DNA of 3,361 nt from a virus. Taxonomy: Duplodnaviria > Heunggongvirae > Uroviricota > Caudoviricetes. This document shows positions 80 through 3,361 of this stretch, piece by piece (the first letter of the stretch is position 1; each line of letters opens with the position of its first letter). The notes under the pieces are model-generated. The model was not told the DNA's origin. It made no database searches and saw only the letters and a list, made by a program, of their open reading frames with translations. The stretch lies in IMG/VR virus record IMGVR_UViG_2703718871_000023. One strand, written 5' to 3'. The translations under genes and the position numbers were made by a program.

Positions 80-304
80 ATGAACCAACTCAAACAATCG
101 CAATCACTATCAGATCGCGTAATCCGTGAGGATGAATGCCGTAAGTTAACTGGAGTGTGCCGCACTACACGTTACGAACTGGAGAAAAAAGGGCGCTTTC
201 CGTCACGTCTTAATCTGGGCGGTCGTTCTGTAGGGTGGCTGCTGTCCGAGGTTATGGAATGGGTTAAAAGCAGGGATCGTATTAATTCAGGTAAGGCAGC
301 GTAG
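80..304 (+). CDS. alpA: AlpA-family phage regulatory protein (Vis/excisionase-like winged-HTH DNA binding protein), 74 aa
   Basis: Translation MNQLKQSQSLSDRVIREDECRKLTGVCRTTRYELEKKGRFPSRLNLGGRSVGWLLSEVMEWVKSRDRINSGKAA has the AlpA/Vis layout I recall: TG..R.T.Y helix-turn-helix, then FP...LG.RSVGW...E...W near the C-terminus, at the typical ~70 aa size. I chose ATG 80 over the ORF-track start at 44 because GAGGG (66-70) lies 9 nt upstream of 80, while ATG 44 has no Shine-Dalgarno. Family assignment is from memory, not a search. Confidence 0.85.
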   Translation: MNQLKQSQSLSDRVIREDECRKLTGVCRTTRYELEKKGRFPSRLNLGGRSVGWLLSEVMEWVKSRDRINSGKAA

Positions 305-320
305 GGGGAACATATGACAC

Positions 321-350
321 ATAAAACAAAGGCGACCTGGGGCGGTCGCC
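321..350 (-). terminator. Rho-independent terminator for the minus-strand transcript (GC-rich hairpin followed by a U-tract on the minus strand)
   Basis: Plus strand reads GGCGACC (331-337), TGGGGC (338-343), GGTCGCC (344-350): a 7-bp stem with 6 GC pairs and a 6-nt loop. On the minus strand the hairpin is followed by TTTGTTTTAT (complement of 321-330). On the plus strand it is followed by AATGGGAAAACAC with no U-tract, so it looks unidirectional. It sits about 90 nt past the stop of the minus-strand gene 442-624. Confidence 0.6.
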
Positions 351-397
351 AATGGGAAAACACTAAACATAAGCCCGAACATCATAGCGATTTGCTG

Positions 398-437
398 GCT
401 GGTGGGCAATGTGCTCAGTGTGCTGGCTTGCTGGTGG
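398..437 (+). other. Two tandem Chi octamers (5'-GCTGGTGG-3') in non-coding DNA, embedded in an imperfect direct repeat
   Basis: Exact GCTGGTGG at 398-405 and 430-437, same orientation, 32 bp apart, inside the repeat GCTGGCTGGTGG (394-405) / GCTGGCTTGCTGGTGG (422-437). They lie between the stop of the minus gene (442) and its terminator. Whether they act as Chi sites depends on the host being E. coli-like. Confidence 0.5.
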
Positions 438-441
438 ACTA

Positions 442-624
442 TCAGCCTTTTGGTTCTATGCCTTCTTTGCGTAGCTTGTCACGACAGGCATTTTTAACCC
501 ATGAACTGAAATTACCAGGCCCAGCAACTTCGTTAATTTGTTGCAACAATGTGTCTTCGAAGCGGATGTTTTTCTTTGTGCTGCCAGAGCGATCAAATTT
601 TGGTTTCTCATTTTTTTCTTGCAT
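442..624 (-). CDS. Small basic YlcI/YnfO-like (DUF3950-like) protein, 60 aa; possible small DNA-binding regulator
   Basis: Translation MQEKNEKPKFDRSGSTKKNIRFEDTLLQQINEVAGPGNFSSWVKNACRDKLRKEGIEPKG is protein-like and matches the pattern I recall for prophage YlcI/YnfO proteins (basic N-terminus, KNIRF...I, then G.GNFS.WV..ACR..L). An in-frame TAA lies 5 codons upstream of the single ATG. It has its own terminator (321-350). The RBS is weak (GGTGG about 9 nt upstream). The overlapping plus-strand frame translates to low-complexity sequence. Family name is from memory. Confidence 0.65.
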   Translation of the reverse strand: MQEKNEKPKFDRSGSTKKNIRFEDTLLQQINEVAGPGNFSSWVKNACRDKLRKEGIEPKG

Positions 625-646: not shown

Positions 647-670
647 CTGAAACCCAATGGTACGTACCAT
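625..670. promoter_or_regulatory. Pair of identical perfect palindromes TGGTACGTACCA; candidate operator sites between the divergent minus gene and the plus-strand operon
   Basis: TGGTACGTACCA at 625-636 and 658-669, each its own reverse complement. The second extends to a 14-bp perfect palindrome ATGGTACGTACCAT (657-670). Centres are 33 bp apart. Copy 1 abuts the start codon of the minus gene and lies in the spacer of a candidate rightward promoter. The motif is directly observed; the operator role is inference. Confidence 0.55.
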
Positions 671-769
671 ATTGAAGATACGCAACCATTAAATACAGCG
701 AAGCCCCGCAGTGGTGGAACACTCGCAGGGCTTCTAACCACCAACGATAGCAACAGTATCGAGGTAGCT

Positions 770-970
770 ATGAGAAATCATACCACACACCCGCAAGGGC
801 GGGACTTGCACAACCTGAATAAATTCACCTGGCGTTTTATCGCCCTGAGCACGGCACAACCGCGCGTGATTACCATTGAGGCCACCAGCGAACAGGAAGC
901 ACGCCAGCAATCCCCGGCTGGCTGCGTGATGCTATTCGCTGCCCGTATTCGCCAGGGGGTAGGCTTATGA
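770..970 (+). CDS. Small protein, 66 aa, first gene of the operon; possibly Icd-like host cell division inhibitor family (tentative)
   Basis: ATG 770 is preceded by GAGGT (761-765). The stop TGA 968-970 overlaps the next start ATG 967-969 (ATGA coupling). Translation MRNHTTHPQGRDLHNLNKFTWRFIALSTAQPRVITIEATSEQEARQQSPAGCVMLFAARIRQGVGL recalls Icd-like proteins of P4-like prophages (F.WRF.A ... E.EAR ... FAAR), from memory and unverified. The ORF track reports this frame open from 314, but the upstream part looks non-coding. Confidence 0.5.
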   Translation: MRNHTTHPQGRDLHNLNKFTWRFIALSTAQPRVITIEATSEQEARQQSPAGCVMLFAARIRQGVGL

Positions 971-1200
971 GCCAGGAAATCACACTACAACAGGCAGCAG
1001 AACGCGCCCACCAAATCGAAGTTATTTGCGCACTGGCAGAGGATTACCCTGGCATGATGACCGACAGCGAATCAGGGGCAATCATCGGCTTACTTAAACG
1101 CCTTAGCGGTGAGGTCTGCGTATTCCTGAGCGATGAACAGGAAAGAAGAACGCTTATTTCTAACGAAAAAAAATGCGGAGGGGTACACCATGTGCAATAA
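967..1200 (+). CDS. Hypothetical small acidic protein, 77 aa
   Basis: ATG 967 has GGGGG (955-959) 7 nt upstream. It is start/stop coupled to the ORF before it (ATGA) and overlaps the next gene by 11 nt. Translation MSQEITLQQAAERAHQIEVICALAEDYPGMMTDSESGAIIGLLKRLSGEVCVFLSDEQERRTLISNEKKCGGVHHVQ. No family recognised. It carries an A8 tract (1166-1173) near its 3' end. Confidence 0.5.
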   Translation: MSQEITLQQAAERAHQIEVICALAEDYPGMMTDSESGAIIGLLKRLSGEVCVFLSDEQERRTLISNEKKCGGVHHVQ

Positions 1201-1411
1201 CATCCGTCCGGACGCAGCCGCCGCCGCACTCACTACGCTGATGCACGCGCTTATTGATATTGAATGCACGGCAGAGCTTGCACAAAAGGAAGAACGGGAG
1301 GAATACACATTGTTCGCCCTGGAATGTATCCGATACACCGCCACGCGGTCGCTGAATGACGCTAAAAATATTCTTGTTGCAGATTGTGAAAATGGGGGGG
1401 GTTATGCGTGA
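1190..1411 (+). CDS. Hypothetical small protein, 73 aa
   Basis: ATG 1190 has a strong Shine-Dalgarno GGAGGGG (1177-1183) 6 nt upstream. The ORF-track start at 1133 has no RBS and would overlap the upstream gene by 68 nt. Translation MCNNIRPDAAAAALTTLMHALIDIECTAELAQKEEREEYTLFALECIRYTATRSLNDAKNILVADCENGGGYA. No family recognised. A G8 tract (1394-1401) sits at its 3' end. Confidence 0.5.
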   Translation: MCNNIRPDAAAAALTTLMHALIDIECTAELAQKEEREEYTLFALECIRYTATRSLNDAKNILVADCENGGGYA

Positions 1412-1637
1412 TGATCGTTTTAATTCCCTGAAACAAGAATTTTCCGGCGTTCCTGATGATGCGGCTGATGCGCTTTCGTCAATGCCAGAACTTATTAGAG
1501 CGGCTTTTTTCTTACTTTCCACGAGAGAATATAAATCAACGGGGCTTGATGTACTGAATATCGCCGCCGATTATGCGGAATATGTGGCAGAGGCGCGTTA
1601 CAGAAGAAAATTTCCTGAGGATGTAAGCCATGCGTGA
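1404..1637 (+). CDS. Hypothetical small protein, 77 aa
   Basis: ATG 1404 lies just after the G-run 1394-1401, which can act as a Shine-Dalgarno, and overlaps the upstream stop by 8 nt (ATGCGTGA). In-frame ATG 1392 is an alternative start. Translation MRDDRFNSLKQEFSGVPDDAADALSSMPELIRAAFFLLSTREYKSTGLDVLNIAADYAEYVAEARYRRKFPEDVSHA. No family recognised. Confidence 0.5.
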   Translation: MRDDRFNSLKQEFSGVPDDAADALSSMPELIRAAFFLLSTREYKSTGLDVLNIAADYAEYVAEARYRRKFPEDVSHA

Positions 1638-1863
1638 TATTTACCACGAAACAACAGAACGCGTATTTCTTGCACTTTCTCACAGTGAAAACATGCTGGA
1701 AATATTGCGCATATGGCTTGAAACACTTGGCGACAATGAACGCGACAAACAAAAATCAAGAATTGTCACGGCATTAATAACGCTTCTTGAGCCTGTAATA
1801 ATGGAACTACAAGAAATAGAGACATTGCACGACAGATATAACGAACAGCACACCGGAGAATAA
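1630..1863 (+). CDS. Hypothetical small protein, 77 aa
   Basis: ATG 1630 overlaps the upstream stop with the same ATGCGTGA junction seen at 1404. GAGGA (1616-1620) lies upstream. Translation MRDIYHETTERVFLALSHSENMLEILRIWLETLGDNERDKQKSRIVTALITLLEPVIMELQEIETLHDRYNEQHTGE, predicted mostly helical. No family recognised. Confidence 0.55.
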   Translation: MRDIYHETTERVFLALSHSENMLEILRIWLETLGDNERDKQKSRIVTALITLLEPVIMELQEIETLHDRYNEQHTGE

Positions 1864-1868
1864 AAATA

Positions 1869-2168
1869 ATGAAACTTAAATATTCTGGCTTAACTGCCAG
1901 TGGCAACACTCACCCTAAATTTACGCGCGGTGATATTTACCGCGACCAGTACGGCGGTACGGTAATGATTAAGGGCGTGGCGGGACGGTGCGTAACTTAC
2001 CGCCGTGAAGGTTACGAATATGATTGCGTGATGCCTGTTTATCAGTTCCGGCGTGATTTTTCTCTGGTACAGACCGCGCCGCATAACGTGCCCACCAGCA
2101 GGGAGAAAGCACGCGCCAATATTCAGAAGATGAAAAACATGATTAACGGATTCAGGGGCAAGAAATGA
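1869..2168 (+). CDS. Small protein, 99 aa, possibly DUF4222-like (tentative)
   Basis: ATG 1869 with GGAG (1855-1858) upstream. Its stop TGA 2166-2168 overlaps the ATPase start ATG 2165-2167. Translation MKLKYSGLTASGNTHPKFTRGDIYRDQYGGTVMIKGVAGRCVTYRREGYEYDCVMPVYQFRRDFSLVQTAPHNVPTSREKARANIQKMKNMINGFRGKK. The core (YRD...G.V.I.GV.GR.V.Y.R.GYE..CV.P...F) resembles what I recall of enterobacterial prophage DUF4222 proteins; unverified. Confidence 0.6.
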   Translation: MKLKYSGLTASGNTHPKFTRGDIYRDQYGGTVMIKGVAGRCVTYRREGYEYDCVMPVYQFRRDFSLVQTAPHNVPTSREKARANIQKMKNMINGFRGKK

Positions 2169-3361
2169 AAAGCGCACCGAACTTAAAAAAACAGCCTTAC
2201 GACAAGATGACCGAAGTCATCATTTTTGCGGGTAGTGATGCGTGGGCACATGCGAAACAGTGGCAGGAACAGGACGGGCGACTGGCTGGCGATAATGTGC
2301 CTCCCATTGTGCTGGCTGATGATCAACTGGATGAACTGGCAGACCTGAGAATCATCGACGAGGGGCGCTATTGTGTCCGGCTGTACAAGGCAGGCCACAT
2401 CAGGCCATCAAATATTAATGCCATTGCGCACAAGCTGGCGGCGGCGGGCGTAACTGATGCGAATTATTACCCCGAAGGGATACACAGCCAGAAGCGGGAG
2501 AACTGGCGCGAATATCTGGAACGGGAGCGGGGGAAAAAGCCAGGGGAAGAACACCACCAGCGAAAAACCACGCTACCGATGAGCGTTGGATCTGCCGGAT
2601 ACGACACGCAATTAGATTACGTGGTAAAGGGGATTATTCCGGCATCGTCGCTTTGCAGCATATACGGGGCGAGCGGTTCCTATAAATCATTCCTTGCGGG
2701 TTCGTGGGCGTGTCACGTTTCCACGGGCCGCCAGTGGGGAGGCCGCAGGGTGGCGCATGGCGCTGTTCTCTATGTGGTTGGTGAAGGCGGTATCGGCGTT
2801 CCGCGTCGTGTAAAAGCCTGGGAGGTTGTGCACGGTGAGCAGGTGAAAAATCTGTATCTGGTAAACCGTCCCATCTTTCCGGCGGTCCCGCTTGATGTTG
2901 ATGAAATGGTTATCGCTGCCCGTCAGGTGGAGCGGGAAACGGGTAAACCTGTACGCATGATTATTCTGGATACGCTGGCGCGTTGCTTTGGTGGGAATGA
3001 TGAAAATGATTCCCGTGATATGGGGGCGTTTATCCGTGGTTGTGACGAACTGAAACGACGCACAGGGGCCACGGTGCTGGTGGTTCACCATTCCGGCAAG
3101 GATGAGACGAAAGGCGCGCGCGGTTCCAGTGCATTTCGTGCATCACTGGATGCTGAATACCGGATACGCAGGGAGGACGCAGGAAGCGAAGCGCTGGTTA
3201 TCTCATGCACCAAAATGAAGGACGCGGAGGAACTCAAAGAGGCTGCCTATGATTTGCGGGTGGTGGAGCTTTTTACCGACGCTGACGGGGAGTTAATCAC
3301 GTCGCTGGTGGTGGTGGATAAGCCGCGCCCTCCCGTTGAACTGGAGCGCATCGAGGAGGCA
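2165..3361 (+). CDS. RecA-fold replication ATPase (AAA_25 / RepA-like helicase-type domain), probable satellite replication or primase-associated protein; 3' end truncated by the window (399 codons, no stop)
   Basis: The frame is open from ATG 2165 (AGGGG 6 nt upstream) to the last base of the window, which is why the stop-delimited ORF track does not list it. Motifs: P-loop-like IYGASGSYKSFLAG (2660-2700), Walker-B-like MIILDTLA (2957-2980), and VLVVHHSGKDETKGARGSSAFRASLDAEYRIRRE, which resembles the RepA/AAA_25 sensor region. The first ~160 aa are an unassigned N-terminal region. Confidence 0.85.
   Translation, partial: MKSAPNLKKQPYDKMTEVIIFAGSDAWAHAKQWQEQDGRLAGDNVPPIVLADDQLDELADLRIIDEGRYCVRLYKAGHIRPSNINAIAHKLAAAGVTDANYYPEGIHSQKRENWREYLERERGKKPGEEHHQRKTTLPMSVGSAGYDTQLDYVVKGIIPASSLCSIYGASGSYKSFLAGSWACHVSTGRQWGGRRVAHGAVLYVVGEGGIGVPRRVKAWEVVHGEQVKNLYLVNRPIFPAVPLDVDEMVIAARQVERETGKPVRMIILDTLARCFGGNDENDSRDMGAFIRGCDELKRRTGATVLVVHHSGKDETKGARGSSAFRASLDAEYRIRREDAGSEALVISCTKMKDAEELKEAAYDLRVVELFTDADGELITSLVVVDKPRPPVELERIEEA

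Follow-up and report, generated by a model that had tools for sequence, protein, structure and literature searches.

A predicted one-way terminator and an open reading frame across an antisense gene suggest P4-like read-through from alpA in a phage-inducible chromosomal island

Gene content of the island module

The window analysed here, a stretch of 3,361 nucleotides (nt) from the Caudoviricetes record IMGVR_UViG_2703718871_000023 of IMG/VR, carries the convergent genes alpA and ylcI, whose stop codons lie 137 nt apart, followed by an Icd/Kil-like gene (Table 1). The subject of this study is the interval between alpA and the Icd/Kil-like gene (icd), which holds a hairpin predicted to terminate leftward transcription only and, on the opposite strand, a long reading frame that passes through the hairpin and across the whole of ylcI. 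With moderate confidence, we lean towards a P4-like wiring in which the one-way terminator ends the ylcI transcript while transcripts from alpA read through by way of this Eta-like frame.

The window is identified as the regulatory and replication module of a Gram-negative phage-inducible chromosomal island (PICI) because of the gene order at a near-identical locus in Escherichia coli A34, which is 96.8% identical over the first 770 nt of the window and sits between chromosomal genes. The order at this locus is int, DUF6387, alpA, ylcI (opposite strand), icd-like, small open reading frames (ORFs), DUF4222, primase, SSB, ProQ/FinO, PerC and a terminase-small-subunit remnant. PICIs were defined by a unidirectional int–alpA–primase/helicase arrangement of about 10–15 kb with few or no phage structural genes (terminase, portal, tail), and the gene content of the A34 locus agrees with this definition, its layout being the same as that of EcCICFT073, the island of E. 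coli CFT073. The alpA product falls into the PHROG category 'excisionase and transcriptional regulator', in agreement with the A34 annotation, and matches 8c3t ('AlpA family phage regulatory protein') among PDB sequences (E = 6e-8).

Table 1 Features of the regulatory module and their positions in the window
Feature	Position	Strand	Evidence
alpA, AlpA/Vis-family regulator; first gene of the proposed rightward read-through transcript	80–304	+	Pfam PF05930 Phage_AlpA, E = 2e-16
Ribosome-binding site GGGGGAA (305–311) and ATG (314–316); ATG 10 nt past the alpA stop	305–316	+	Read from sequence; motif conserved in alignment
Eta-like reading frame, 218 codons	314–970	+	ORF list; stop counts
U-tract TTTGTTTTAT; expected 3' end of the ylcI transcript, 17–26 nt from the alpA stop codon	321–330	-	Sequence and scan
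Stem-loop of the leftward intrinsic terminator, GGCGACC-N6-GGTCGCC	331–350	-	Consensus scan, score, shuffles and covariation
Candidate (unproven) promoter TTGCCC, 17 nt, TATGAT; would give an RNA of about 50 nt ending at the terminator	381–409	-	Scan
Chi site GCTGGTGG inside the conserved 15-mer GGCTGGTGGGCAATG	398–405	+	Sequence; second Chi site at 430–437
YlcI/YnfO-family (DUF3950) gene, protein of 60 amino acids	442–624	-	DUF3950, E = 5e-8; NCBIfam YlcI_YnfO_N
Candidate icd promoter, TTGCAT (619–624) and TATAAA (641–646)	619–646	rightward	Hexamers assigned by eye (inference)
Two perfect 12-bp palindromes TGGTACGTACCA, candidate operators	625–636 and 658–669		Repeat search; 33 nt start to start
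Candidate ylcI promoter, TTGCGT (685..680) and TACCAT (662..657)	685..657	leftward	Hexamers assigned by eye (inference)
Structured leader of the icd/kil-like gene, hairpins 700–734 and 740–765	700–765	+	RNAalifold consensus
Icd/Kil-like gene, 66 amino acids, nested in frame at the end of the Eta-like frame	770–970	+	NF033153 phage_ICD_like, E = 2.5e-19; phrog_1743

A predicted terminator of leftward transcripts

The consensus scan recovered the hairpin between alpA and ylcI as a minus-strand terminator only. Its stem of 7 bp, six of them G:C (folding free energy, dG, −13.9), stands 92 nt past the ylcI stop codon and has the tail TTTGTTTTAT in the minus-strand reading and AATGGGAAAA in the plus-strand reading. 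Terminators were scored with a d'Aubenton-Carafa-type value, d, for which the same script returned 30 for the trpA terminator and 25 for lambda tR2. On this scale the hairpin scored +24.3 on the minus strand and −48 on the plus strand, and it was the sole site with d > 0 on either strand of the window. Dinucleotide-preserving shuffles (n = 200) produced a site with d > 0 in 17 cases and a site with d ≥ 20 in none, which, together with the uniqueness of the site, indicates that the terminator is not a product of chance. With a GC-rich stem-loop, a U-tract, a gene upstream on the same strand and conserved pairing, the hairpin is confirmed as a predicted strong intrinsic terminator of the minus strand only. 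The original prediction had placed the U-tract on this strand alone, and this holds for the window and across related islands; it had also described the terminator as shared by the two convergent genes, a description that has to be dropped because, for want of a U-tract in its plus-strand tail, the hairpin should stop leftward transcripts alone.

Bidirectional intrinsic terminators occur between convergent genes, and the hairpin resembles them in being GC-rich and in lying between such a pair. It differs from them in having an A-tract on one side only, with predicted action on a single strand and a conserved asymmetry; the U-tract on both strands that marks the bidirectional type was not found.

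Conservation was assessed in IMG/VR records carrying an exact match to the 15-mer at 397–411, of which about 70 are PICI-like, with alpA alleles down to 28% identity. In all 58 distinct variants the hairpin position is occupied by a leftward hairpin whose minus-strand tail is rich in T, and none of the 58 has a plus-strand T-tract there. The stems that occupy this position include GGCGACC/GGTCGCC, GGCCACC/GGTGGCC, GGCGGCTCC.../GGGGCCGCC and GGGCGTTCCG.../CGGGGCGC. The 27 distinct sequences that could be aligned have 98.9% of their stem cells paired; one stem position shows a compensatory change (G:C to C:G), 11 stem cells are G·U or U·G pairs, which a plus-strand RNA would turn into A·C mismatches, and the T-tract columns are mostly invariant or nearly so. 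Stem changes that are valid only in minus-strand RNA, together with the kept orientation, point to selection on a minus-strand RNA hairpin whose one-way character is maintained. The same polarity is seen in EcCICFT073, which has two tandem leftward terminators (d = 23 and d = 52) and in which no terminator between alpA and the end of the primase gene scores d > 0 on the plus strand. These tandem terminators, at 5163..5144 and 5039..5020, lie inside the long frame of that island.

The covariation also bears on a different explanation of the inverted repeat, namely that it is a DNA-level element and no RNA terminator: a protein-binding palindrome, or part of a recombination hot-spot together with Chi sites. 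Chi sites at 398 and 430 do adjoin the hairpin, and homology breakpoints fall in the region. A DNA palindrome would, however, be strand-symmetric and sequence-specific, whereas here the stem is kept while the sequence and length of the loop vary, the G·U-type changes pair on one strand only, and unrelated hairpins with T-tracts substitute for one another in the same orientation. We regard a DNA-level element as highly improbable.

Conservation extends beyond the hairpin, as a block at about 323–411 to the right of alpA matches 714 E. coli genomes regardless of the flanking genes. This block could be a separate minus-strand small-RNA gene, with a start near 374 and an RNA of about 50 nt that consists of a conserved single-stranded 5' part and the terminator, acting as an antisense or trans regulator; such a gene could coexist with ylcI termination. 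A −10-like hexamer recurs at the same 17-nt spacing in four versions (TATGAT, TATCAT, TGgCATTGT and TGgTATTCT), the minus-strand fold of 310–450 has z = −2.4, the block persists whatever flanks it, and the Rfam isrD model gives a weak, full-length match. That match reaches 20.6 bits against a gathering score of 37 and comes mostly from the terminator stem, and the independent −10 versions number only four. In addition, the −35 hexamer overlaps a Chi site, and its conservation is biased because the loci were collected by that exact 15-mer; the position of the block inside the Eta-like frame means that other constraints could explain its conservation. We therefore judge a small-RNA gene to be quite unlikely. 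The Rfam hits over the whole window and over 300–450 (isrD, MicA and RsaJ) were all sub-threshold.

Chi sites are frequent in the module, with seven copies of GCTGGTGG in 3.36 kb (398–405, 430–437, 3076–3083 and 3304–3311 on the plus strand; 882–889, 2092–2099 and 2554–2561 on the minus strand). Counted in both orientations and without the collecting site, they number 0.81 per kb in 68 PICI-like IMG/VR loci, against an average of about 0.22 per kb in E. coli K-12. Homology breakpoints cluster near the invariant 15-mer GGCTGGTGGGCAATG.

A reading frame kept open across the antisense gene

The frame at 314–970, a feature absent from the original prediction, runs across the hairpin, Chi sites, the full length of ylcI in antisense, the candidate operators and the leader; the Icd-like gene forms its last 66 codons, in frame. 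The position of its ATG beside the alpA stop makes it a candidate for translational coupling. Counts of stop codons from the alpA stop to the icd start (Table 2) show that the Icd frame is nearly free of stops, in the window and across 17 representative intervals having at most half of their 11-mers in common. Both Icd-frame stops in the representative set precede the first start codon of the frame and are at most about 40 nt from the alpA stop; in all 17, the first in-frame start falls 4–57 nt past that alpA stop. In Pantoea and Xenorhabdus, too, the frame stays open across ylcI.

Table 2 Stop codons per frame between the alpA stop and the icd start
Interval	Length	Icd frame	Other frames
Window	465 nt	0	9 and 8
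IHE3034 island (L009)	724 nt	0	15 and 12
L011 (four minus-strand genes)	1,404 nt	0	38 and 21
EcCICFT073	about 1.14 kb	1 (before the ATG of the frame)	28 and 19
17 representative intervals	4,821 codons	2	319 and 274

Several observations concern the form of this frame in individual islands. In some islands the open plus-strand frame covers as many as four small minus-strand genes, two of them YlcI-like paralogues (L011, 2593–3723). In E. coli CFT073 (L134, NC_004431.1), the N-terminal part of the long frame of EcCICFT073 resembles a Bro-N domain remnant (4767–5040). In the window and in two other loci (L012 and L047), alpA and the long frame share one reading frame, with TAG alone between them (302–316 in the window), and amber read-through of this codon would fuse AlpA to the Eta-like product; as the frames differ in other variants, this register is probably incidental. 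Annotation pipelines give inconsistent start positions for 'Icd-like' genes and label fragments of the zone as Icd-like, BRO-N or ash pseudogenes.

In the plus-strand RNA, C exceeds G over 441–520 and 581–760, a composition that would favour Rho loading if the RNA were untranslated. Together with the avoidance of stop codons, it lends indirect support to suppression of Rho-dependent termination by translation of the frame. The frame, of 0.5–1.9 kb, appears to be held open across antisense genes for translation itself and not for its protein product.

A simpler account of the locus is an ordinary convergent pair, in which the hairpin ends the ylcI mRNA, the alpA mRNA ends within the untranslated 305–441 by Rho or processing, AlpA activates an icd–primase promoter in trans and the long frame has no role in read-through. 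It draws on the properties of AlpA, a DNA-binding activator that acts in trans on promoter fusions (PMC6092414), on the candidate sigma-70 promoter elements and operators directly upstream of icd, and on two weak plus-strand hairpin-plus-T sites within ylcI (430–446 and 474–489). These two sites, found by a permissive scan, have a dG of about −5 and score d of about −45, and were rejected as terminators; alpA is thus left without an obvious terminator, as the original prediction had it. An ordinary pair also leaves unexplained a stop-free frame over 0.45–1.9 kb of varied sequence that includes non-coding spacers in the 17 representatives, a frame start beside the alpA stop, and the homologous arrangement in P4. 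For these reasons we consider it unlikely.

The antisense gene, candidate operators and the icd leader

The gene ylcI lies entirely antisense within the Eta-like frame. A genome scan with YlcI gave six loci, which were used for cross-genus checks and are too few for covariation; a homologue search gave eight close relatives. Between the window and the Pantoea and Xenorhabdus loci, identity is 0.70–0.75 for YlcI amino acids, 0.67–0.70 for nucleotides and 0.62–0.65 for the amino acids of the plus frame, and differences fall mostly at third codon positions, which are common to both frames. This pattern places purifying selection on YlcI, with the plus frame merely staying open.

The palindromes TGGTACGTACCA adjoin the ylcI start codon, between ylcI and icd, and overlap candidate promoters that face each other, leftward for ylcI and rightward for icd. 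Two copies of the motif are present at the same 33-nt spacing in Pantoea stewartii (L002), and one pattern match each was found in Xenorhabdus (L003) and in another locus (L007). The AlphaFold model of YlcI has helices at 25–34 and 39–54 after an unstructured segment, at a modest pLDDT of 67. In the island with four minus-strand genes (L011), a YlcI homologue (BLASTP, E = 3e-9) has a sub-threshold match to Pfam Arc (16.5 bits against a cutoff of 20.4). The palindromes near the start codon, the helix-helix core and the Arc match make YlcI a candidate ribbon-helix-helix repressor acting at the palindromes. A literature search found nothing on the function of YlcI.

Downstream of the operators, the second hairpin of the icd leader pairs with the ribosome-binding site GAGGT (761–765), and compensatory changes are seen at 8 of the 17 pairs of the leader consensus (11 islands). 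The leader (700–765) has no match in Rfam, and it may be a translational control element that replaces the CI/seq sites of P4.

Comparison with P4 and other systems

P4 Kil matches NF033153 (E = 1.6e-21), and phrog_1743 is matched by both P4 Kil and the gene at 770–970 of the window. Since the Kil/Icd family models are common to both, the analogy with P4 rests on homologous parts and goes beyond resemblance, which strengthens the likeness to P4 vis drawn in the original prediction. According to the account of Forti et al. 1999 contained in PMC10111431, the left operon of P4 runs from PLL through vis and the nested genes eta/kil, with immunity termination at timm, and translation of eta prevents this immunity-dependent termination, so that transcripts from the late promoter read through. 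The Eta frame of P4, 199 codons long, begins at MMM codons overlapping the vis stop and ends as the Kil protein of 65 amino acids. The window has the same order of parts: an AlpA/Vis-family gene stands first, a long frame begins from or near its stop, encloses an internal promoter region and closes with a nested, in-frame Kil/Icd-family gene, and primase genes follow downstream.

The two systems differ in their immunity. P4 encodes its immunity element, the CI RNA with seqA/seqC, on the same strand, whereas in the window the frame contains an antisense protein gene, ylcI, which comes with a one-way terminator of its own and two palindromic candidate operators; no match to Rfam C4 or isrK was found anywhere in the window at E ≤ 1. 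The non-Kil part of the frame is also dissimilar to P4 Eta. Sequence and comparison establish the anatomy of the locus, a terminator conserved in place and orientation, a frame held open by selection and parts homologous to P4 vis and kil. At the sequence level, programmed read-through from alpA is well supported by the open frame together with the matching vis–eta–kil arrangement of P4.

The closest characterised relative in layout is EcCICFT073, which shares with the island int, alpA, a short variable zone, icd, small ORFs, DUF4222 and primase/helicase, as well as a convergent ylcI, leftward terminators and the open frame. A four-zone layout of PICIs was described by Mageeney et al. 2023 (PMC10111431). 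In EcCICFT073, AlpA activates its own promoter (Fillol-Salom et al. 2018, PMC6092414), alpA is turned on by helper phages, and AlpA is required both for expression of an ORF3-fused reporter and for induction; the same study calls it unclear whether Gram-negative PICIs possess a global repressor. Text searches of PMC6092414 and PMC10111431 found no mention of the minus-strand ylcI unit, the terminator or the open frame spanning the antisense gene, and a literature search found no RNA-seq of EcCICFT073.

The pR and pL promoters of coliphage 186 interfere with each other, and lambda PRE runs antisense through cro. The proposed read-through resembles these cases in that an activator-dependent transcript runs head-on through an opposing regulator gene before it reaches its target genes. 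It differs in that ribosomes apparently translate the read-through RNA across the antisense gene, and in that a dedicated one-way terminator would halt the opposing transcript. A further comparison is with the AlpA-type processive antiterminator of Pseudomonas aeruginosa; in the search of PDB sequences, the AlpA product of the window matched 8c3t alone and no chain of an RNA-polymerase complex at E ≤ 1. The window holds only 79 nt upstream of alpA, where an antiterminator binding element would lie.

Neighbouring features

A hairpin at 46–79 (GCTCTCG-N12-CGAGGGC, dG −10.3), followed by GTTTTTAT, ends 1 nt before the alpA ATG, and the likely ribosome-binding site of alpA lies within its 3' arm. 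It could be a terminator or attenuator for transcripts from int and DUF6387, which would be relevant to the 'auto-activation' of AlpA. The best E. coli matches to 699–3361 (96% identity) stop at about 699, and positions 1–770 match other strains; this is a mosaic junction, and the regulatory and replication modules differ in history. A megablast search of the phage collection with the window gave no match, and a query with the Icd-like protein matched one record.

Proposed mechanism

In the proposed circuit, ylcI would be transcribed leftward from the operator region at about 650–685 and its transcript would end at the stem (350..331) and U-tract (330..321), so that the one-way terminator would keep leftward, antisense transcription out of alpA and int. 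With no U-tract on the plus strand and the hairpin inside a frame that would be translated, a polymerase from the alpA promoter should meet no terminator. Ribosomes finishing alpA would re-initiate on the Eta-like frame at 314 and translate through the hairpin, the ylcI antisense, the operators and the structured leader. This translation would shield the transcript from Rho-dependent termination, as translation of eta does in P4, and would thereby deliver polymerase into icd/kil and the replication genes. Read-through would run head-on against ylcI transcription and over the ylcI promoter, producing an RNA fully complementary to the ylcI mRNA; less of the putative repressor would then be made, and induction would be locked in. 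Without induction, the ylcI mRNA of about 330 nt would be complementary to the first part of the Eta-like frame, and its pairing could block translation of the frame and cause polarity on stray alpA transcripts. We infer that read-through takes place in this way, with translational coupling, Rho involvement and interference with ylcI. The interference had originally been proposed as mutual, which the predicted coverage does not bear out: ylcI transcripts would stop about 20–25 nt before they reach the alpA coding sequence, and read-through from alpA would cover all of ylcI.

Several points weigh against this mechanism. The islands compared share a common ancestry and are not independent samples. 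Synonymous shuffles of the minus-strand genes leave the frame open at rates of 0.16–1.0 per gene, so that intragenic avoidance of stops largely follows from the protein composition of the minus-strand genes, and the signal comes mainly from the spacers and the variety of intervals. At about half of 61 loci the frame starts downstream and does not reach back to alpA, a position that may reflect an intervening plus-strand (Bro-type) gene. Outside its Icd part, the frame at 314–970 has no similarity to P4 Eta in a direct BLASTP comparison and no recognised domain, and YlcI found no fold match, sequence match or profile match in the PDB. AlpA could also activate the icd promoter directly.

Implications for PICI regulation

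We tentatively extend the preferred wiring of one-way terminator and alpA read-through to an immunity switch of Gram-negative PICIs, a possibility that we rate as doubtful. The ylcI unit would be this switch: YlcI would repress the replication operon at the palindromes, its mRNA would block translation of the Eta-like frame so that stray alpA transcripts terminate, and shielded read-through induced by a helper would flip the switch. If true, this would be a protein-plus-antisense replacement for the CI RNA immunity of P4, with one stretch of DNA read on both strands for regulation. How PICIs are kept silent and how AlpA switches on their replication genes is a long-open question, for which the locus provides a concrete and testable circuit, made up of a candidate repressor with its operators, a predicted one-way terminator insulating alpA and int, and an alpA-coupled frame homologous in layout to P4 eta/kil. 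Such a circuit would tie PICIs mechanistically to P4.

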